A stretch of DNA of 64,000 nt from Patescibacteria group bacterium (GCA_041665505.1 JBAYIR010000005.1:225-64224); one strand, 5' to 3'; counted from the first letter of the stretch, positions 3,754 to 48,521 are shown. Notes: generated by a model from the sequence alone, not told the origin. A program made the numbers and translations.

Positions 3754-4221
3754 ATGAATTGCCCAGTTTGCAATCATAAAGATACCAAAGTAAGAGACTC
3801 TCGTCTTAGTGGCGAGGGTTTTAGTATTCGTCGTCGCCGTTTATGTCAAAAATGTCATTTTCGTTTTTCTACTATTGAAGAAACAGAGCTTTTGGATTTG
3901 ATAGTTATTAAACGTGATGGACACAGGGAAAATTATGATAAAGACAAATTAATTCGTGGTCTGAGGACATCTTTGGAAAAAAGACAATATTTAGCAGAAA
4001 ATTTTCATAAACTTATCAATGATATTGAAAGAGATATTCAAAAAACATCTAAAAATGAAATTACTTCCAAGCAGTTGGGTGAGATAGTGATGAAAAGATT
4101 AAAATCTTTTGATCAGGTTGCTTATATCAGGTATGCTTCTGTTTATAGGTCTTTCAAGGATGCTGAGACTTTTCAAAGGGAGCTTAATCAACTTTTAAAA
4201 AAGAAAAAAAAGATTAAATAG
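3754..4221 (+). CDS. nrdR: Transcriptional repressor NrdR
   Basis: N-terminal zinc ribbon CPVC...CQKC followed by an ATP-cone, 155 aa. Confidence 0.9.
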   Translation: MNCPVCNHKDTKVRDSRLSGEGFSIRRRRLCQKCHFRFSTIEETELLDLIVIKRDGHRENYDKDKLIRGLRTSLEKRQYLAENFHKLINDIERDIQKTSKNEITSKQLGEIVMKRLKSFDQVAYIRYASVYRSFKDAETFQRELNQLLKKKKKIK

Positions 4222-4269
4222 TTATACACTTGTCACTCCATTTTTTCTGTGATAAGCTCAGATTACTTT

Positions 4270-4470
4270 TACGAAGCATTTTAACAATCAAATCAGGGAA
4301 GTGAGGTGAGATTCCTCCACAGTCCTAGCTACGGTAGTCTGGTATTTGCCAGATGATAGTCCGACACCTGAGATATTTACTTTCTCCTAAGGAGAGAAGG
4401 GTTAAATTTATTAACAATCATAATAATTTTACCTCTGCTTTTCTTAGGCAGGGATTTTTTATTTTTTGTT
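4270..4470 (+). promoter_or_regulatory. Candidate cobalamin (B12) riboswitch with terminator-type expression platform
   Basis: AGGGAA (4295-4300) followed by GGTGAGATTCC, and a B12-box-like AGTCCGACACCTGAG at 4358-4372. A hairpin CCTCTGC...GCAGGG plus T-run at 4432-4467 lies just before the ATG at 4492. Confidence 0.5.
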
Positions 4471-4491
4471 TATAAAAATTATTATAATACT

Positions 4492-6267
4492 ATGAAAAAA
4501 TTTATTCTTACTATTTTTGCTCTAGTTATTTTTGTCAGCCCCAATTTGATTTTAGCTGATAATGACAATACTATTGCCTATTTACAAGGGCAAAGTCAAA
4601 ATACTTGGATTAGCCAAGCTTTGGCAGCTGCGACGGCGGGTGGCATTGATATTAGCTATCTTGATTATCAAACTACAGATTTGATGGCGGCCTCTAAAAA
4701 TATTTTGACTTTAGCAGCCGTTGAATCACAAGACACAGATAATATTAGACAATTATTATCAGTTATAGAGTCTAGCAAGAATAATGGTCAATTTGGTTCA
4801 AGTGATTTACTCAATGATGATTTTTGGGTTTTAATGGCCTTGGCCTCGGTCAATCAATTAGCTGACACAGACAGTGCTAAAAATTTTATCTTAGACCATC
4901 AAAATACTGATGGAGGCTGGAGTTGGTCAGCTAGTGGCACTTCAGATAGCAATGACACAGCCGCAGCTATTATGGCTTTACTTGATTTAGGTTTAGATAG
5001 TAGCTCAACAGCGATTGTTAATGCTTTAGCTTATTTACAGACTAGCCAAAATGCCGATGGAGGTTTTGCTTATGATCTTGATAGTAGCTCCGATGGAGCT
5101 TCTACGGCTTGGGTTATTGCCGCTTTAAATAAAGCCAATATTTCGGCTAGCTCTTGGCAAAAAGATAATAATGATCCAATATCTTTTTTGGAAAGTTTAA
5201 GACAAGATAATGGTTCGTTTTTATGGATGCCTAGTGACGGGCAAGGTTCAACTATGGTGACAGCTTATGCCTTAGTAGCTTTAAGTGGCAAAGCTTATCC
5301 TATAAATTATATAGATATAGCAATAAATGAAGAAGTACTTGGTGGGCATAGTTTGCGTATTGAAGGACCAGCTGGCACTATTTGCCTAGCCAACAATTTA
5401 GAAGCTACTACAGTTTTGGAATTATTAGAGGCAGGTTCTAATGTTTGTGATTTTGAATATATTAGTCAAGATAGTGCTTATGGTGTTTATATTTCAGCTA
5501 TTGATGGAGTAAGTGCCTCTGGTATGGATGGTTGGCAATATTTTGTCGATTGGCAAGCTGGTATGTTGGCTGTGACAGATTTTATTTTAGAAGATAATCA
5601 AGAAGTGTTGTGGGCTTATGGAGGTTGGCCTTTTTATCCAGTTAAATTGGAAGTAAATGATAGTCATTTTGAGGTGGGAGAGACTTTGATGGTTGATTTT
5701 AAATATTACAACGGAGAGTCATGGTTGCCTTTGGCGGGAGCGGGCATAGTTTTTGGGGCAGAGACTTATTCTACTGATGCCAGTGGTCAATTTAGTTTGG
5801 TTCTGGATAGTGAGGGAATTTTCCCTATTTTTTCTCAGCCTAGTAGCACTTATGCCAGAAGCAATAAAGAATATATAGTAGTCGGTAGTGGCATTTCTCA
5901 AACAGTTGATTTATCAGTTAATGTAGAATCTGATGATGGTGGTGGAGTAGAAGAGGATGATGTGATTGCTTTTAATGTGGATAGATCAAGTATTAATTTT
6001 GGTACTTTAAATCCTGGTCAAGCCGTTGATACTATTGTATCTTTGTCCAATACCGGTAACGTTAATATCTATATCGAAGCTAGTGTTTTAGGGGATCAAG
6101 TTTTTACAGACTTTACCAGCTTAGATCAAGATCAATGGTCAGACTATAATCTTGATTTAGCCACAGGCTCCAGTGAAGCAGTAAATGTGGGGCTAGCTAT
6201 TCCTAGTAGTTTTTCGGCTTTAGGTCAAAAACAAGGCCAATTGATTTTTTGGGGTATTAATCAGTAA
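4492..6267 (+). CDS. Secreted alpha/alpha-toroid repeat protein with transcobalamin-beta-like (DUF4430-like) C-terminal region; putative extracellular cobalamin-binding protein
   Basis: Signal peptide, then repeated QNTDGGWSW / QNADGGFAY / RQDNGSF motifs (prenyltransferase/terpenoid-cyclase-like toroid repeats). Later GMDGWQYFVDWQ...DFILEDNQEVLWAYG resembles the GW.Y.VNG...D.v.W.Y pattern of the transcobalamin beta-domain. A riboswitch-like leader lies directly upstream. Confidence 0.5.
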   Translation: MKKFILTIFALVIFVSPNLILADNDNTIAYLQGQSQNTWISQALAAATAGGIDISYLDYQTTDLMAASKNILTLAAVESQDTDNIRQLLSVIESSKNNGQFGSSDLLNDDFWVLMALASVNQLADTDSAKNFILDHQNTDGGWSWSASGTSDSNDTAAAIMALLDLGLDSSSTAIVNALAYLQTSQNADGGFAYDLDSSSDGASTAWVIAALNKANISASSWQKDNNDPISFLESLRQDNGSFLWMPSDGQGSTMVTAYALVALSGKAYPINYIDIAINEEVLGGHSLRIEGPAGTICLANNLEATTVLELLEAGSNVCDFEYISQDSAYGVYISAIDGVSASGMDGWQYFVDWQAGMLAVTDFILEDNQEVLWAYGGWPFYPVKLEVNDSHFEVGETLMVDFKYYNGESWLPLAGAGIVFGAETYSTDASGQFSLVLDSEGIFPIFSQPSSTYARSNKEYIVVGSGISQTVDLSVNVESDDGGGVEEDDVIAFNVDRSSINFGTLNPGQAVDTIVSLSNTGNVNIYIEASVLGDQVFTDFTSLDQDQWSDYNLDLATGSSEAVNVGLAIPSSFSALGQKQGQLIFWGINQ

Positions 6268-6272
6268 AAATA

Positions 6273-6836
6273 ATGAAAGCTTTTAAAATATTTTTATTTA
6301 TATTGTTTTTTCTGCCTCTGCCATCTCAGGCTGTTGGTATTTCTGTCCAGCCATCTTCTATAGATTTATTATCGCCAGACGTAGTTGAAAAAAAACTTAG
6401 TGTCAAAAATATTTCTAAAGAACCAATAGTAGTCCATATTTATGTAGATGATTTTTCGGATAATATAAACATAGAACCAAATGAATTTGAACTTTTACCT
6501 GAGCAAGTGACGTCAGTCAGAATTTCTGGGGATTTTAGTAATTTTTCAGCTGGCACCCAAAAAACCAATATATCAGTTTTGTCTAAGGCTTTAGACAAAA
6601 AAAGTTTTAATGCTATTTCTGGTATCAAAATTCCACTGAGCATTTATATAAATAAAGATTACTTTCAGTGGTCAGGTCCAGCTGTTTTTGTAGTGGTGTT
6701 TTTGGGTGGCCTAATCATTTTTTATCTATTTAGAGTTTTTGTTAGGATTTTTAGTAAGCAAAAAAAGAAAGGCCACTGGTTTTCCATTAATCTATTGGTC
6801 CATCATAAAAAAAAGAGCTGGTATAAATGGCGCTAG
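6273..6836 (+). CDS. Hypothetical secreted protein with C-terminal membrane anchor
   Basis: Signal peptide, a beta-rich middle, one C-terminal TM helix and a basic tail. Tightly linked downstream of the 4492 gene. Confidence 0.55.
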   Translation: MKAFKIFLFILFFLPLPSQAVGISVQPSSIDLLSPDVVEKKLSVKNISKEPIVVHIYVDDFSDNINIEPNEFELLPEQVTSVRISGDFSNFSAGTQKTNISVLSKALDKKSFNAISGIKIPLSIYINKDYFQWSGPAVFVVVFLGGLIIFYLFRVFVRIFSKQKKKGHWFSINLLVHHKKKSWYKWR

Positions 6837-6880: not shown

Positions 6881-6903
6881 CGTAGCCGAAGGGCTATTTT
6901 TTT
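6881..6903 (+). terminator. Intrinsic terminator
   Basis: Hairpin GTAGCCgaagGGCTA followed by TTTTTTT. Confidence 0.6.
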
Positions 6904-6996: not shown

Positions 6997-7359
6997 ATGA
7001 TGGACGAAGAATTAAAAAGAATTATCAACCAAAATCAAGAAACTTTGGCCGATATTGACAAAAGATTGCATCGTATTGAAAAAAAATTCGTTTGGAATGG
7101 TATTTTTGGCTTTATAAAAACTTTTATTATTTTAGCACCAATCATTGTTGGTGCTATTTACCTGACGCCAATTCTAAAAGATTATATCAAAATCTTTGAG
7201 CCAATTTTTAGAAACATGCCACTGACTTTACAGAATCTAAGTAATGCTTCTTCGCAAATAAATAAAGGAACCAATGAAGCATCTGGGCAAGTCAATGGTT
7301 TAGAGGCTTTCTGTAACCAAGAGTCTCGTCAAGCGATGGTTGACCAACTTTGTCAGTAA
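6997..7359 (+). CDS. Hypothetical small membrane protein
   Basis: 120 aa with one central TM segment. No recognised motif. Confidence 0.45.
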   Translation: MMDEELKRIINQNQETLADIDKRLHRIEKKFVWNGIFGFIKTFIILAPIIVGAIYLTPILKDYIKIFEPIFRNMPLTLQNLSNASSQINKGTNEASGQVNGLEAFCNQESRQAMVDQLCQ

Positions 7360-8455
7360 AAAAATATCAGTGGAAGAACTACGTACTAAAATAAAAGAAC
7401 TGCATTCTGAAATTTCCAAAGCTTTGGACATTTTGGATTTGGCCAATAAGAAAAATAAAGTAATAGCCTTAAAACAAGAGATGATTGCTCCTGATTTTTG
7501 GAATGATCAGGATAGAGCCAAAACAATTAGTCTAGAAGCTAGTGTTTTAGAAGGGCAGATTGATGTTTGGCAGACTTTAGTTAAAGAAGTGTCCGAACTT
7601 TCTGAGATGTCACAAGATAAACAAGCTGATGAATTATTAATTGATATCCAAAATAAATATCAAAGTCTTGACAGTCAATTTAAAGATTTATCACAGCAGC
7701 TTTATTTACAGGGTAAGCATGACCATTTACCAGCTATTGTTACTATCAATGCTGGAGCCGGAGGAGTGGATGCTCAAGATTGGGCACAGATGGTAGAAAG
7801 AATGTATCTTCGTTTGGCTGAAAAAAATAATTGGACGCTTAGTTATTTATCTCGTTCTATGGGAGCGGAAGCGGGTATAAAAAGTGCTACTTTCAAAATC
7901 AATGGTTTGTATGCTTATGGTTATCTCAAAAATGAAGCTGGTGTGCATCGTTTGGTGAGGCTTTCTCCATATGATGGCGATCACGCTAGACATACTTCTT
8001 TTGCTATGTTAGAAGTGTTACCAGAATTATTACAAACAGATATGGATATTAAAGATGATGATTTAAAGATAGATACTTTCAGATCTTCTGGTAATGGTGG
8101 ACAGTCTGTCAACACTACTGATTCAGCTGTTCGTATTACTCATTTACCAACCGGTATTTCTACTAGTTGTCAAAATGAAAGATCACAGTTACAAAATAAA
8201 AAACAAGCTCTTGCTTATTTATATGGTAAACTGCAAAAATATTATGAAGCAGAAAGAGAGGAAGAAAAAAAATTACTCAAAGGAGAATATACAGAAGCAG
8301 CTTGGGGCAATCAAATCAGATCATATGTTATCCATCCTTATAAAATGGTCAAAGATCATCGTACTAATTTTCAATCCAAAGACCCAGACAGAGTGTTAGA
8401 CGGGGATTTGATGCCTTTTATCAGAGCAAATTTGGAAAAAAATGTAGTGGCTTAA
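7340..8455 (+). CDS. prfB: Peptide chain release factor 2 (intact, no programmed frameshift)
   Basis: GGQ motif (SSGNGGQSVNTTDSAVRITH), N-terminal DFWNDQDRA, and an RF2-type tripeptide region reading SPY instead of the canonical SPF. No CTT-TGA-C shift site upstream. Confidence 0.85.
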   Translation: MTNFVSKKISVEELRTKIKELHSEISKALDILDLANKKNKVIALKQEMIAPDFWNDQDRAKTISLEASVLEGQIDVWQTLVKEVSELSEMSQDKQADELLIDIQNKYQSLDSQFKDLSQQLYLQGKHDHLPAIVTINAGAGGVDAQDWAQMVERMYLRLAEKNNWTLSYLSRSMGAEAGIKSATFKINGLYAYGYLKNEAGVHRLVRLSPYDGDHARHTSFAMLEVLPELLQTDMDIKDDDLKIDTFRSSGNGGQSVNTTDSAVRITHLPTGISTSCQNERSQLQNKKQALAYLYGKLQKYYEAEREEEKKLLKGEYTEAAWGNQIRSYVIHPYKMVKDHRTNFQSKDPDRVLDGDLMPFIRANLEKNVVA

Positions 8456-8515
8456 GATATTTTGTGCTATAATAAATATATGTTTGAACACTTAGGACCA
8501 GTTCCAGAAGTCAGG

Positions 8516-9958
8516 ATGAGTAAAAAAGAAACAAATTATAAATTGTATTTGAGTTTGTTATTTTTTTCAGTTGTTGTTTTTGTTTTTTCTATGGGTGTCA
8601 GTAGAGGGCCAAGCTCCAAGGCAGAGGAATCAGCTACTTTGTCAGCTCAGGTTTTTGTTGACTCAAGTGATAAAAAAATTGTCTCCACTGCCAAAAATTT
8701 TTCAGTTTTCGATTTCGTCATAGATATTAACCAAAATAATACCTCTCTTTATAAATTAAATATTTTAGCCAATGGTGTTTATGATTTAAATGTTATTGGT
8801 GATCTAAAATTATTTCACGAAGGTGTGCAGCTAGGTCAAATAGATAAGATGGATCAAAATGGTAAAATATATTTTGATTTAGCTGAGTATCAGCTCAAAG
8901 CTGGCAAAAATACATTCTCTTTATTTTTCAACAATGGAGATAGTCTTAGCCCAGGACTGGCTCTAAGTTTTAGTATTTCTGACCAAGAAGATATATTTTT
9001 GATTAAAGATGGACATGTGTTTAGACCACAAGCAGATTTTCCTATTGCTGGAGGCCTAGTATCAGTTTTAGAAAAAGGTGAAGCCTTGGCTTCTAATCTT
9101 TATGTAGTCAATGATTTTTTAATTAACTCTGATGTCCCACAACAAGTGGCTTCTTTTGAGCTTAGCTCTATTGGTGAAAAATTGGATCTTAGGCAAATAA
9201 AATTATCTTACCAAGATTTAGAGAGTGATGATTATCCAGATTTGGATTTTGTCTTAATACATAATAAGCAACCATTAGCTCAGGCCACCTCTAGGCAAGG
9301 AGAAATTATATTTGTTTTGCCAGAGACTATAATTCTTCAGGATTTACAAAGGGAACAATTTGATTTACATGTTATAGCAATGCCAGTTGGGCGTTATCAA
9401 TTTTTTATAAAAGATATTTTAGCTCAAGGAGCTCTATCGGGTTTGGATATTTCATTGCTTGATAAATTAGCTTTAAGTAGTGTCGAAGCTAGTAAGTATT
9501 TTATACAACTTCAAGCCGGTGATTTGGACAAAAAATTATCAGCTGGCTGGAATAAAATTTATAGTTTGAATATCAAAACCAAGGGTATAGATAAAGCTTA
9601 TTTAGATAGAATAACTTGGCAGATAGACAAACAAAATTTAGATATTGAGTCTGTGGAAATTTGGAAAAATGGTCAGCCTTATATTGCTAATGTGGTTTTA
9701 AAAGATAATATGATTATTGTCAAAACAGATGCTTCAAATCCTTTGGAGATTTCTCAAACCGACACTGAAATTTCACTTTTAGCTAATATAGTTAATTTAG
9801 AGCCAAAAGCCAAGATAGAAGCCTTTGTTTTGCCTGACTATCAGCCAATTGATGAAGATCTTCTTTTAGGTAATATTATTTGGTCAGATGGAGAGAATTT
9901 TTATAATAGTTATAAAATACCATATTTACCACTAGAGCCGAGTATTTTGGCTAATTAA
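8516..9958 (+). CDS. Hypothetical membrane-anchored extracytoplasmic protein
   Basis: Start taken at ATG 8516 (MSKKETNYK) rather than the ORF-track start at 8462. N-terminal TM anchor, rest without recognised motifs. An extended -10 TGCTATAAT lies at 8465-8473. Confidence 0.55.
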   Translation: MSKKETNYKLYLSLLFFSVVVFVFSMGVSRGPSSKAEESATLSAQVFVDSSDKKIVSTAKNFSVFDFVIDINQNNTSLYKLNILANGVYDLNVIGDLKLFHEGVQLGQIDKMDQNGKIYFDLAEYQLKAGKNTFSLFFNNGDSLSPGLALSFSISDQEDIFLIKDGHVFRPQADFPIAGGLVSVLEKGEALASNLYVVNDFLINSDVPQQVASFELSSIGEKLDLRQIKLSYQDLESDDYPDLDFVLIHNKQPLAQATSRQGEIIFVLPETIILQDLQREQFDLHVIAMPVGRYQFFIKDILAQGALSGLDISLLDKLALSSVEASKYFIQLQAGDLDKKLSAGWNKIYSLNIKTKGIDKAYLDRITWQIDKQNLDIESVEIWKNGQPYIANVVLKDNMIIVKTDASNPLEISQTDTEISLLANIVNLEPKAKIEAFVLPDYQPIDEDLLLGNIIWSDGENFYNSYKIPYLPLEPSILAN

Positions 9959-44774: not shown

Positions 44775-47700
44775 ATGAGTTTAATAAAAAGACTTTTTGT
44801 GTTTTCCTTGGTACTTACCACTGTCCTATGGTCATTTGGTGGCCTAAAGGTTAATGCAGCTGGTAACTACGGAGCAGGATCACTTCTTGCTTTACAGGGA
44901 CAAAGCGGAGCTGCTGTCTATTACATTGGTTCAGATGGTAAAAAATATGTTTTCCCTGATGGAAAAACTTATGCTACCTGGTATGCCAATTTTAACGATG
45001 TTGTTAGAGTTAGCGTAACTGAACTAGATATGTATCCTGATGGTGGTGCCGTTACTTATCGTGCTGGTACAAAATTAATCAAACACGAAAATACAGCCAA
45101 AATTTATGCTGTGGGCAATGGTGGAACTATCCACTGGGTTCCTAGCGAAGCAATCGCTGTAGCTTTATATGGTGCAACTTGGTATACAAAAGTCATGGAT
45201 GTAATTCCTGGCTATTTTTCATCAAGCTACACTTTAGGAGCTGATTTATCTGACAAATACCCAAGTGGAACTTTGTTACAAATGGGTGAAAATATGTACG
45301 TTGTAGATGGTACATCTGTCAGACCATTTGCTGATGCTGATGCTTTTGAAGCCAACAATTTTGTCTATGCCAACTTAATCGAAGTTACTAGCATTGCTGG
45401 TTATTCCACAGGTGAATCTGTCACTGGTGAGGAAGTTGCTTTATCCGGCTTTATGGCCGCTGAAGAAGACGATACAGTAGTGGTAGATGGAAACTTAACA
45501 GTTTCTCTATACCAAACTCCAGAGGCTATGAATATGCCAGAGTTGTCATCAAATGATTTCTTAGGATTAAAACTAGCTGCTGGTTCTTCAGCTGTTAGTG
45601 TAGAATCATTGACTTTGACCTCTTATGGTCTAGGTGATTCTGAAAATGTTGATGATGTTACTATTTACCAAAATGGTGTCAAAGTTGGTACTTCCAAGAA
45701 TGTCAACTCAGACAGAAAAGCTGTATTTAACTTTTCTACCCCAATCGAAATTGCTGCCAACAGCTCAGTTATGTTGACAGTAAAAGCTACTATTGCTGCC
45801 GCTGCAGTTGCTAGCGAAACCTATGGTTTAGGTATTGCTTCAGCTAGTGACATAGTCACTGGTGGAACTGTTGGTGGTTCTTTCCCAGTCATGGGTAACT
45901 TAATGACAGATGTAGCAGCTAATATTGGAACTGTTGTTTTGTCAGGCGTTCAAAATTCTGATAACGTAGCAGTAAATTTTGGTGAAGACAATGTCTTGTT
46001 AGCAGAATTTACTTTGACTACTGGTTCAAATGAACCATTGCTATGGGAAACTGCCAGATTTAGAAATGGTGGTACCAACAACGCTGATGTTTTAGACAAC
46101 TTAAGAATTGAAGTTGACGGTGACATTGTCGCTGAAGGTGCTTCATTGGTTGATAAATACATCAACTTTGATATGGGCAGTTTATTACTTGATAAGAGTA
46201 AAGCTGTTAATGTAGAAGTATATGGTGATATTGGTGTTGCTAGTGTAAATAACACTATTGACCTATATATTGACAATGCTTCTGACTTTGTATTTATGGG
46301 TCAAACCTATGGATACGGAGTACAAATTACTAGCATTGCTACATTAGATGCAGCTGGTGATGGTATCCAAGCTCTTTTAGCTGCTGCTGATTTCACATTA
46401 GATATGGACAAAGCTGCTACTCCTTCCAAGGATGTAAAAGCTGGTGATGATAATGTAGTATTAGCTACAATGTCTTTCACATCAAATGGTGAAAATGCTA
46501 CTATCAATGATATTAGTAACACTGGAACAGCTACTGCTGCTCAAATGGATTTCTATGTTGAAACTAATAGCTCTCAAGCCGCTGGTTTTGATGACGAGTT
46601 GTCCAATTTTGAGTTAAGAGATGTCTCTAATGGTATTTTATATGATATCACAGCTACAGCTTCTACAACTTTCAAAGGTTGGGCCTTAGCTATGACTGAT
46701 GAAATAGCATTGACAGCTGGTGTAACCAAGACTTTTGAGTTGAGAGTAGATGTAGCTGGTACTGGGGATACTGATGCAGCTGATGATGCTGATACTTATA
46801 AAGTTTATCTAGAAAGTAGCGCTATGAATGTCACTGGTGATGATTCAGATGCTACTATCAGTGATATTACTCCAAGCTCTGTTTCAGGCACTACAGCCAC
46901 TGTTAGAGATGGTTCACTTAAAGTAACAACAGTTGCTTTGACCAACAAGTCAGTAGTAGGTGGTGCTGGTTCTGTAACTCCAGTAGTGGTTTACAAAGCT
47001 GGTTTGGAAGTTGGCGATTCATCAGATTTGACTTTAACTTCTTATCAAGTTGATGTTACTAATGAATATCCTAACTTCACTGGTTTTGAAGATAGTAATG
47101 TAGCTCAATTAGATTTATATATCGTTGAAAATGGAGTATCTAGATTGTTGAAATCTACTTCAAATGATATTACTAATGATGGTTTAGCTACAGCTTATAT
47201 CAACTTTACTAGCTTAAATACTACAAATAGAGTATTGAAGGCTGGTGTTGATGTTGAGTTGGAAGTAAGAGCATTATTTGCTTCAAGCTTCTCATCTACT
47301 ACTACTGAGTACTTTGCTCTAGAGCAAGTAGACAACTCAGGACTTAACGTTGTAGTAAAAGATTCAGACAACACAGATGTTGATGAAACTATTGCTAATG
47401 GAGGCACAGATTCACGTGTAATGACATTGTCCTCTGCTGGTACTTTGAAAGCTGAAATTTTAACTACAGATACCAAAGCTAATGATGATATGTACATCTT
47501 AGCTGGTTCTGAATCAACTCATGGTAGATATTTAGCTGAATTGAAATTCACTACAGCTAATGAAGCTATTAAGTTGACGGATTTAGCTTTGCAAGAATAT
47601 GGCGATAGTACTGGTGCTGATGTCAAAGTTGTAAAACTTTATGATTCAGCTGGTACAGTTGTAGCTTACAAGAGTCCAACAGCTGATGGTCATGTCCATT

Positions 47701-48521
47701 TTGAAGAAGGAGACTTCTTGAACAGCAAAAATGTATTAGCTGCTGATCAATCAACTTCATTCTTTGTTGGTGTATTGACCAAAACTATCAATGCTGATGG
47801 TGATGTTGAAGGTACTGCTACCTTTGATAATGGCATCCGATATGGTTTTGCTTCATCTGCTGCTTTGGCTGTATTTACAGACTTAGCTGTTGGTGATGCT
47901 GTTAAAGCTACTGGTGTTGATAGTGGTAGCGACATCTCATTGGTTGAAGATACCAATGGCGGTGCTGCTGAAGTTGGTGATTATACAATTTCTTCTACCA
48001 AATCAAAGACAGCTTCTACTACTGGTTCTATCTTGACTGTAATCACCAATGACATGGCTAATAGCACATTGTCTGGTGGTAACAACAAGATCATTGGTGA
48101 ATACAAGTTTGTATTCAACAATGGTAATAACAGAACAGCTGCTAATACAGAATTAAAAGCTCAATTGAGACAGTTGATTTTGACTATTGCTACATCTTCC
48201 ACCACAAACGTTACAGATGTACAAGTCTACATTGAAGGCGATGAGTCTAATAAGACAACCGCTGTCGATCCTCTTGTAGGTGTTGCAACTGTGGACCTTA
48301 CAACTTTACTTACTGATACCAATTTGGTTGATGGAACAGTTACCTTAGTTGTAATTGGTGACTTAGCTGTAGTTGGTGCTGATCAATATGTCCAGACCGA
48401 AATTGCTAGTTTAACCACTGACTTTACCTACAATGGTAACAATGGTACTTCAGGCGCTAACTGGGTAAATGCTAGATTAGATGGCATTTCTCAAGTAACT
48501 GGAGCTACTCTATCTAACTAA
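44775..48521 (+). CDS. Giant secreted Ser/Thr/Ala/Val/Asp-rich surface protein (S-layer-like or adhesin); three ~55-aa N-terminal tandem repeats
   Basis: Signal peptide MSLIKRLFVFSLVLTTVLWSFGGLKVNA. 1248 aa, no Cys, beta-rich low-complexity. Followed by a very strong terminator. Confidence 0.8.
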   Translation: MSLIKRLFVFSLVLTTVLWSFGGLKVNAAGNYGAGSLLALQGQSGAAVYYIGSDGKKYVFPDGKTYATWYANFNDVVRVSVTELDMYPDGGAVTYRAGTKLIKHENTAKIYAVGNGGTIHWVPSEAIAVALYGATWYTKVMDVIPGYFSSSYTLGADLSDKYPSGTLLQMGENMYVVDGTSVRPFADADAFEANNFVYANLIEVTSIAGYSTGESVTGEEVALSGFMAAEEDDTVVVDGNLTVSLYQTPEAMNMPELSSNDFLGLKLAAGSSAVSVESLTLTSYGLGDSENVDDVTIYQNGVKVGTSKNVNSDRKAVFNFSTPIEIAANSSVMLTVKATIAAAAVASETYGLGIASASDIVTGGTVGGSFPVMGNLMTDVAANIGTVVLSGVQNSDNVAVNFGEDNVLLAEFTLTTGSNEPLLWETARFRNGGTNNADVLDNLRIEVDGDIVAEGASLVDKYINFDMGSLLLDKSKAVNVEVYGDIGVASVNNTIDLYIDNASDFVFMGQTYGYGVQITSIATLDAAGDGIQALLAAADFTLDMDKAATPSKDVKAGDDNVVLATMSFTSNGENATINDISNTGTATAAQMDFYVETNSSQAAGFDDELSNFELRDVSNGILYDITATASTTFKGWALAMTDEIALTAGVTKTFELRVDVAGTGDTDAADDADTYKVYLESSAMNVTGDDSDATISDITPSSVSGTTATVRDGSLKVTTVALTNKSVVGGAGSVTPVVVYKAGLEVGDSSDLTLTSYQVDVTNEYPNFTGFEDSNVAQLDLYIVENGVSRLLKSTSNDITNDGLATAYINFTSLNTTNRVLKAGVDVELEVRALFASSFSSTTTEYFALEQVDNSGLNVVVKDSDNTDVDETIANGGTDSRVMTLSSAGTLKAEILTTDTKANDDMYILAGSESTHGRYLAELKFTTANEAIKLTDLALQEYGDSTGADVKVVKLYDSAGTVVAYKSPTADGHVHFEEGDFLNSKNVLAADQSTSFFVGVLTKTINADGDVEGTATFDNGIRYGFASSAALAVFTDLAVGDAVKATGVDSGSDISLVEDTNGGAAEVGDYTISSTKSKTASTTGSILTVITNDMANSTLSGGNNKIIGEYKFVFNNGNNRTAANTELKAQLRQLILTIATSSTTNVTDVQVYIEGDESNKTTAVDPLVGVATVDLTTLLTDTNLVDGTVTLVVIGDLAVVGADQYVQTEIASLTTDFTYNGNNGTSGANWVNARLDGISQVTGATLSN

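Follow-up and report, generated by a model that had tools for sequence, protein, structure and literature searches.

A probable cobalamin riboswitch scoring below curated Rfam thresholds ahead of a transcobalamin-like gene in a Patescibacteria genome

Cobalamin riboswitches are among the best known riboswitches. Members of class Cbl-I carry a P2 loop-stem-loop between P1 and P3 together with an elaborate P7-P11 extension of P6; members of Cbl-II have no P2 arm, bear a loop or simple stem-loop on P6, and possess a P1 with a J1/3 bulge adjoining P3 (PMC7367189). Within the second class, Cbl-IIa senses HyCbl and MeCbl and Cbl-IIb senses AdoCbl, with a selectivity that is plastic, and in all cobalamin riboswitch classes a kissing loop between L5 and L13 links the aptamer to the expression platform (PMC7367189). 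The DNA analysed here, referred to as the window, is a stretch of 64 000 nucleotides from a Patescibacteria group bacterium (GCA_041665505.1, JBAYIR010000005.1:225-64224). Positions 4293-4467 on its plus strand very probably form a cobalamin riboswitch that acts as the transcriptional OFF switch of a two-gene B12-capture operon. The element is not new in kind; it is of an ordinary kind that, in this Patescibacteria lineage, is missed by standard annotation thresholds.

The element lies downstream of nrdR (ORF 3754-4221; TIGR00244, 179.8 bits against a cut-off of 124.65; ATP-cone and Zn-ribbon), with the next ORF starting at 4492. A first-pass annotation had described an untranslated gap of 270 nt at this place, containing AGGGAA and B12-box-like motifs and ending in a hairpin and T-run ahead of the next gene, and had read it as a B12 riboswitch with the layout of a transcription terminator. 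The length of the gap (4222-4491) proved exact and the motifs were found where they had been placed, with AGGGAA at 4295-4300, GGTGAGATTCC at 4305-4315 and AGTCCGACACCTGAG at 4358-4372. A terminator scan likewise recovered the hairpin, which has eight pairs (4433-4453) and is followed by two U-runs (4455-4460 and 4462-4467, giving U6-A-U6), 25 nt 5' of the ATG. The reading as a riboswitch with a terminator is supported by orthologous leaders, covariation and two-state folds. The features of the locus are collected in Table 1.

Table 1. Positions of the predicted riboswitch, its promoter and the genes that it precedes, numbered from the first nucleotide of the window
Feature	Position	Strand	Sequence or basis
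Putative sigma-70-type promoter	4230-4258	+	Consensus match and conserved spacing
Cobalamin riboswitch aptamer overall (P3-P6, P6 hairpin, B12 box, P13/L13)	4293-4400	+	
Aptamer core, four-way junction	4293-4371	+	RF01482/RF01689 alignments, RNAalifold
P3	4293-4297 with 4367-4371	+	UCAGG/CCUGA
J3/4	4298-4300	+	GAA
P4/L4	4301-4318	+	L4 UGAGAUU
P5/L5	4321-4330	+	L5 CCUA, 4324-4327
P6	4332-4334 with 4361-4363	+	
Short P6 extension hairpin, sole peripheral element	4337-4354	+	GUCUGGU-AUUU-GCCAGAU
B12 box	4358-4372	+	AGUCCGACACCUGAG; spans 3' strand of P6, J6/3 and 3' strand of P3
J6/3	4364-4366	+	ACA
P13 hairpin	4380-4400	+	7-nt loop L13 CUAAGGA, 4387-4393
Antiterminator (ligand-free fold)	4381-4454	+	Unconstrained MFE of the window leader
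Intrinsic terminator	4433-4467	+	Stem 4433-4440/4446-4453, loop UUCUU, U6-A-U6 4455-4467
Gene 1, 591-aa secreted transcobalamin-like protein	4492-6267	+	Pfam, profile, predicted fold
Gene 2, p187	6273-6836	+	Translation; starts 6 nt after the end of gene 1

The putative promoter at the start of the gap consists of a -35 hexamer TTGTCA (4230-4235), a 17-nt spacer and an extended -10 element TGaTAAGCT (TGATAAGCT, 4250-4258). A TTGNCA-type hexamer stands exactly 20 nt before the TG of TGnTAnnnT in nine of 11 leaders (the window and ten orthologs), and the sequence would place the transcription start near 4265. A generic promoter scan had missed this site because its -10 hexamer matches the consensus at three of six positions. 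No terminator-like site was found between nrdR and the leader, and transcripts could therefore also arrive by read-through from nrdR; with either source of transcript, the terminator of the riboswitch gates entry into the operon. Two further features were observed in this region. An AGTTATnnAC motif, kept in several orthologs, overlaps the nrdR stop codon and lies directly 5' of the -35 hexamer (window 4220-4258), and CUUGUCAC (4229-4236) and GUGAUAAG (4249-4256) form an inverted repeat across the -35 to -10 region of the window that can be drawn as a hairpin and could be an operator or UP-like element.

When the whole 64-kb window was searched against 4227 Rfam families at curated gathering thresholds, no match to any family was obtained. 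The best match of cmscan in 4150-4560 (411 nt) was to RF01482 (AdoCbl) at 4279-4409 on the plus strand, with 34.6 bits against a gathering score of 50 and an E-value of 8.6e-05, which becomes about 0.01 when scaled to the whole window. The alignment ran from end to end of the model with high posterior probability in the core, and the outer 12-bp P1/P2 helix of the model was deleted. For the aptamer alone (4262-4379), the best model was RF01689 (AdoCbl-II), with 28.4 bits (E 3.4e-05; gathering score 36.5), and RF00174 scored below RF01482 and RF01689 in the window, at less than 31.5. The window element thus lies below the gathering scores of all three models of clan CL00101 (RF00174, RF01482 and RF01689). 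Other Rfam matches in the gap (IsrR antisense, PyrG leader, anti-hemB, greA, PyrR and L10 leader) had E-values of 0.03-8 and were rejected as compositional because all of them fell on the terminator or the AT-rich part.

Homologs of the 591-aa protein number in the hundreds and mostly carry Patescibacteria names; one is 100% identical and derives from a metagenome-assembled genome (MAG) named 'Patescibacteria group bacterium'. An alignment of 30 homologs was used to retrieve 80 genomic loci, numbered with the prefix L. Ten of these, of Komeilibacteria/Parcubacteria type (L001-L010), share the gene order of the window, ftsA-ftsZ-nrdR-[gap]-591aa-p187-p120-prfB, and an nhmmer search with the 131-nt window element matched the same gap in all ten (E 1e-12 to 1e-23). 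Gathering scores were reached by seven of the ten orthologous leaders, six with RF00174 (L002, L003, L007, L008 at 46.5 bits, L009 and L010) and one with RF01689 (L006, 44.4 bits); the leaders of L001, L004 and L005 fell below them, like that of the window. Leaders above threshold were also present in two more distant genomes (L013 and L014) and, among the 16 loci of a further batch (L016-L031), immediately before the homolog in 10 (six with RF01482, four with RF00174), so that an above-threshold CL00101 match stood just upstream in 19 of the 31 loci with the homologous gene. By synteny and by nhmmer, the window element is homologous to accepted CL00101 elements. The leaders of its clade score around the Rfam thresholds, and the window lies on the wrong side of them.

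The gathering threshold is an operational criterion for annotation and not a structural one. The first-pass annotation had taken a cmsearch score below it as refutation, and formally the window element falls there; this rule is the wrong test here because the orthologous leaders pass the cut-offs and covariation supports the fold. A search of the whole window at gathering thresholds would have given a false negative. A covariance model, R1, built from 11 orthologous leaders, gave the window element 120.8 bits, a score that holds by construction because the window sequence is among the 11 training sequences. R1 found no second copy of the element in the window. Across the retrieved loci it had matches at E<=1 in 34, on the plus strand and mostly 100-300 nt upstream of the homologous gene. 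An additional small ORF of 132-162 aa was observed between the riboswitch and the transcobalamin-like gene in four relatives (L004:3450-3938; L005:3523-3921; L009:3470-3928; L006:2036-2443) and is absent from the window. Its product carries a signal sequence with a lipobox-like Cys, matches no Pfam family and may be another surface component controlled by the riboswitch.

Leaders of the window and L001-L010 were aligned with MAFFT and folded with RNAalifold. This covariation-aware folding, which the first-pass annotation had put forward as a check, recovered P3, P4, P5 and P6 without guidance, as well as the P6 extension (with partial covariation) and a long helix in which the 5' terminator strand is paired to UAAGGAGA. 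Compensatory changes were present in every helix that varies, comprising UA to AU, AU to GC and GC to AU in P3, GC to AU and AU to GC in P4, and GC to UA in P6 in four sequences. An explicit structure consisting of P3, P4, P5, P6, P13 and the kissing loop was then scored against controls in which the pairing partners were slid by 1-3 columns. Standard pairs occupied 96.4% of cells, compared with 44.5-62.0% in the slid controls, and eight pairs were changed on both sides, compared with 1-4; none of 500 shuffles reached the observed values for pairing, double changes or covariation. The P13 helix was 89.9% paired, with two pairs changed on both sides. The four-way junction of P3-P6 is present with its core sequences (GGGAAG, L4 GGUGAnAnUCC and the B12 box), and the B12 box, which is nearly invariant in the 11 orthologs, aligns to the AAGUCAG...CC segment conserved in the Rfam models. 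The P6 insert, 20-32 nt of unrelated sequence, forms a single hairpin in 10 of 11 orthologs and is lacking in L006.

Neither RNAalifold nor an exhaustive scan of column pairs detected a conserved helix outside P3 that would correspond to P1 or P2, and the column-pair scan gave no conserved stack of more than three pairs joining the 5' leader to sequence downstream of P3. The RF01689 alignment suggests a P1 (4278-4283 with 4369-4374) that conflicts with P3, a helix supported by covariation, by overlapping it. A 5' segment (UUUGACAAU-like) was observed to be conserved in the leaders. Directly 5' of P3, positions 4279-4292 (A2 columns 30-46) are conserved in the clade with consensus ACUUUGACAAUUUAA and no detectable helix; this segment might be the equivalent of the J1/3 that contacts the ligand in Cbl-II riboswitches.

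A simple scan had reported a terminator-like hairpin at 4380-4400. It lacks a U-run downstream and its loop is one partner of the kissing loop, and it was for these reasons assigned to P13. Within L13, AGGA (4390-4393) is complementary to UCCU of L5 (4323-4326). Both loops (L5 UCCUA, L13 CUAAGGA) are invariant inside the window clade, where no covariation between them is possible, and the kissing loop is therefore supported solely by covariation between clades. This covariation extends through the family in five different pair combinations: beside UCCU:AGGA in the window clade, the L5:L13 pairs are UGC:GCA in seven loci, GGC:GCC in L031, ACC:GGU in L017, AUC:GAU in L018 and UCC:GGA in L021 and L036. 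Two loci, L016 and L022, have a single mismatch.

Downstream of the aptamer, two mutually exclusive folds were predicted. The free MFE of 4372-4460 is one long hairpin of -25.8 kcal/mol, in which L13 and the 3' strand of P13 (4381-4401) pair with 4433-4454, that is with the 5' strand, loop and part of the 3' strand of the terminator, around a central hairpin at 4403-4431. The RNAalifold consensus of this antiterminator helix is UAAGGAGA/UCUUCUUA, with G-U to G-C changes. When P13 was forced and L13 kept unpaired, three hairpins resulted (4380-4400, 4403-4431 and the terminator at 4433-4453; -19.6 kcal/mol), and locking P13 left an intrinsic terminator and U-run in all 10 leaders folded in full (L006 excepted). 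The antiterminator was the free MFE in eight of 11 leaders (window, L001-L005, L007 and L010). For L008 and L009, unconstrained folding itself favours the terminator state, by about 1 kcal/mol, which makes the thermodynamic pattern uneven among the leaders. In 11 of 11 orthologs a terminator was found at the same place, with U-run and covarying stem. The ortholog stems differ (CUCUGC/GCAGAG, CUCUCC/GGGGAG, UCUCCU/AGGAGA) and stay complementary both to themselves and to AAGGAGAG. This platform is of the classical design for ligand-induced termination, in which, going by the mechanism known for the family, ligand binding would stabilise the kissing loop.

Transcription from the promoter in the gap would thus begin near 4265. 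In the absence of corrinoid, L13 together with the 3' strand of P13 would pair with the 5' half of the terminator, and RNA polymerase would read through the resulting antiterminator into 4492-6836. With a corrinoid in the junction, the kissing loop between L5 (UCCU) and L13 (AGGA) would lock P13 and free the terminator hairpin and its U-run, so that transcription would halt before the genes. The element is probably a ligand-responsive stop of the transcobalamin-like gene that operates when B12 is plentiful. A B12-replete cell would by this means shut off B12 scavenging, as the operon encodes a transcobalamin-like binder and a membrane-anchored partner.

The same kissing loop could in principle act on translation by sequestering a ribosome-binding site (AAGGAG) in L13, as in the marine Cbl-IIa (env8-type) riboswitches. 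The sequence of L13 and the 3' strand of P13, CUAAGGAGAG, is indeed Shine-Dalgarno-like, and it is the class II model RF01689 that best fits the aptamer alone. Translational control is nevertheless very unlikely. The ATG of gene 1 is 98 nt downstream of AAGGAG, and a start codon follows AAGGAG at the right distance in four of 11 orthologs, where the resulting ORFs are not conserved; on these grounds a role of this sequence as a ribosome-binding site or in a leader peptide was rejected. The AAGGAG segment is complementary to the 5' strand of a terminator whose covarying stem and U-run are kept in all 11 leaders.

A decaying, non-functional relic would account for the scores below threshold with all three clan models and for the loss of P1, and the window clade has also lost the DUF4430 and DUF6580 genes that complete the operon in other Patescibacteria. 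Such decay is highly improbable: the core nucleotides of the leader are invariant in 11 genomes across which the protein encoded next to it is only 49-69% identical, the changes in the helices are compensatory, and the complementarities that form the terminator and the antiterminator are both kept while the sequences drift, which together are the signature of purifying selection on structure. A chance resemblance, with the gap holding merely a terminator for nrdR and a promoter for the gene that follows, in an AT-rich, low-complexity region that also attracts weak unrelated matches (IsrR, PyrG leader, anti-hemB), is effectively refuted, as the cobalamin matches span full models on the correct strand at far lower E-values than the unrelated ones, orthologs pass curated thresholds, covariation is present, and the link to the transcobalamin-like gene holds across dozens of genomes.

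The first gene that the riboswitch would control encodes a protein with a signal peptide-like N-terminus, an alpha/alpha-toroid, a DUF4430 beta-domain and C-terminal beta-sandwich domains. Pfam matches were to Prenyltrans (residues 121-216) and DUF4430 (307-377), and a family profile matched the transcobalamin beta-domain (5no0, E 2e-5; 4zrp/2bb5, E 3.4e-4). An AlphaFold2 model had a mean pLDDT of 81.5, with values of >90 over most of residues 30-270, and its best 14 PDB matches in Foldseek were transcobalamin, intrinsic factor and haptocorrin (E 7e-11 to 5e-9, probability 1.00), with about 415 aligned columns covering both domains and a large rmsd that reflects domain orientation. The transcobalamin architecture, an alpha6/alpha6 toroid followed by a DUF4430 beta-domain, was present. 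By domains, sequence and modelled fold, the protein is a putative transcobalamin-like cobalamin binder. The second gene encodes p187, which has a signal peptide, an Ig-like domain (with a faint match to Cep192_D6), a C-terminal transmembrane anchor and a basic tail; about 40 loci have a p187 homolog after the transcobalamin-like gene. The two genes would be co-transcribed, and a terminator-like site at 6882-6897 with a T-run closes the operon.

Further genes were observed beyond the operon. Ahead of the listed prfB ORF and overlapping it (window 6997-8455) lies p120, a conserved 120-aa ORF without Pfam match, and the pair is kept in L001-L010. The RF2 match (TIGR00020, 434.6 bits) begins at residue 18 of the prfB ORF and continues in one frame, so that prfB is here apparently without its usual programmed +1 frameshift. 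Two large ORFs have no Pfam match at E<=0.001, 44775-48521 (1248 aa) and 8462-9958 (498 aa), and several relatives encode a homolog of the 498-aa protein close to the B12 operon (p534 of L082). ARAGORN found no tRNA in the 64 kb, just as Rfam found no family at gathering score, and a block of ribosomal-protein and translation genes at ~17-39 kb was assigned from the order of the ORFs, by visual inspection.

Among the ~38 window ORFs scanned, which lie outside the ~17-39 kb block, no B12-dependent enzyme, cob gene, B12 transporter or adenosyltransferase was found, and tblastn with the NrdJ, BtuR, small DUF4430 and DUF6580 proteins of relatives gave no match in the window; RNR/BtuR and DUF6580 were also absent from the L001-L010 loci by tblastn. 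The first-pass annotation had noted that the lineage appears to lack B12 biosynthesis genes in this window and would need to scavenge corrinoids. The scavenging part is supported by the transcobalamin-like nature of the regulated gene; a lack of biosynthesis throughout the lineage cannot be concluded from a single window. Elsewhere, by tblastn, about 11 loci have RNR and/or BtuR adjacent to the operon and about 22 have DUF6580 there. One locus, L082 (6648-13406; the same genome as L018), has the order ftsA, ftsZ, RNR, cobA/BtuR, riboswitch, binder gene, p187-like gene, small DUF4430 and DUF6580, with a B12-dependent RNR (NF006417, 1185.7 bits against 961; NrdJ_Z, 766 bits), a cobA/BtuR adenosyltransferase (TIGR00708, 170.3 bits against 167.75) and a riboswitch at 9800-9911 (RF01482, 52.5 bits in L018). 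Neighbourhoods of the RNR and BtuR type were also observed in L011, L016, L018, L020, L022-L024 and L068, and the operon of relatives was seen to extend into genes for a small DUF4430 protein (151 aa) and the membrane protein DUF6580 (179 aa). The likely B12 consumer would be the AdoCbl-dependent class II ribonucleotide reductase seen beside the operon in relatives. The rationale of B12 scavenging is well supported for the family, and DUF6580 is a candidate B12 translocator. A literature search, outside which most subscription journals fell, returned nothing on this system or on DUF6580, which is weak evidence of absence.

A true riboswitch that fails every curated Rfam threshold was here rescued by synteny and covariation, and this matters for the annotation of reduced, AT-rich CPR genomes. 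A broader interpretation is offered tentatively, as one possibility. The riboswitch may head an uncharacterised cobalamin-capture system of Patescibacteria, made up of a secreted bacterial protein homologous to transcobalamin/intrinsic factor and of an Ig-like partner anchored in the membrane, joined in most relatives by a small DUF4430 protein and DUF6580 as candidate new B12 translocator, and feeding an AdoCbl-dependent class II RNR. The window clade would then represent a P1-less, Cbl-II-like subtype whose kissing loop of 4 bp (UCCU:AGGA) is coupled to a terminator, and B12 regulation would be under-annotated in the lineage because Rfam thresholds miss this subtype. Through guilt by association, the riboswitch supplies regulatory evidence that the widespread proteins of Patescibacteria, Chloroflexota and Bathyarchaeia in which prenyltransferase-like and DUF4430 domains are combined are cobalamin binders, equivalent in prokaryotes to transcobalamin and intrinsic factor. 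Taken with the NrdJ and BtuR genes beside the operon of relatives, it suggests that B12 is a nutrient that these episymbiotic bacteria actively scavenge for the synthesis of DNA precursors, and it points to DUF6580 as a transporter candidate.

With regard to the described riboswitch classes, membership of Cbl-I is not indicated, as no conserved helix was found 5' of P3 and the P6 insert is a single hairpin. The absence of P2 and the simple P6 element are those of Cbl-II, whose model RF01689 is the best for the aptamer alone and is passed by L006; this membership is architectural and incomplete because no conserved P1 was found. The window element is accordingly Cbl-II-like, without detectable P1. 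Adenosylcobalamin, which the first-pass annotation had named for in-line probing, stays one candidate ligand; given the Cbl-II-like architecture it is not the sole one, and MeCbl or HyCbl are also possible.

The element shares with Cbl-II riboswitches (RF01689, env8-type) the four-way junction of P3-P6, the lack of a P2 arm, a loop or short hairpin on P6, an L5 with CCU, and an L5-L13 kissing loop with an AAGGAG-like sequence in L13. It differs from them in its score (28.4 against a gathering score of 36.5), in having no conserved P1 or J1/3 that could be detected, in an L5 that is one nucleotide longer (CCUA), and in the use of the AAGGAG of L13 as the antiterminator strand and not as the ribosome-binding site of the gene. 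With RF01482 and RF00174, whose thresholds are passed by orthologous and paralogous leaders, it has in common GGGAAG, the GGUGAnAnUCC L4, the GCUAC-G-GUA box, the B12 box and a P13 with a 7-nt loop; the outer 12-bp P1/P2 helix and the long P7-P11 extension are missing from it, and it scores 34.6 against 50. The yvrC riboswitch of Bacillus subtilis resembles it in its short P6 hairpin, in a P13/L13 kissing loop followed by a terminator platform, and in transcriptional OFF control of a B12-uptake operon, but its large P2 arm, which supports the adenosyl pocket, has no equivalent in the window element (PMC7367189). The putative binder, for its part, has the alpha/alpha-toroid and DUF4430-type beta-domain of transcobalamin, intrinsic factor and haptocorrin in the same order; in contrast to these proteins, to which it is 12-16% identical, it is bacterial, carries a signal peptide, and has about 200 extra C-terminal beta-sandwich residues and a membrane-anchored partner.
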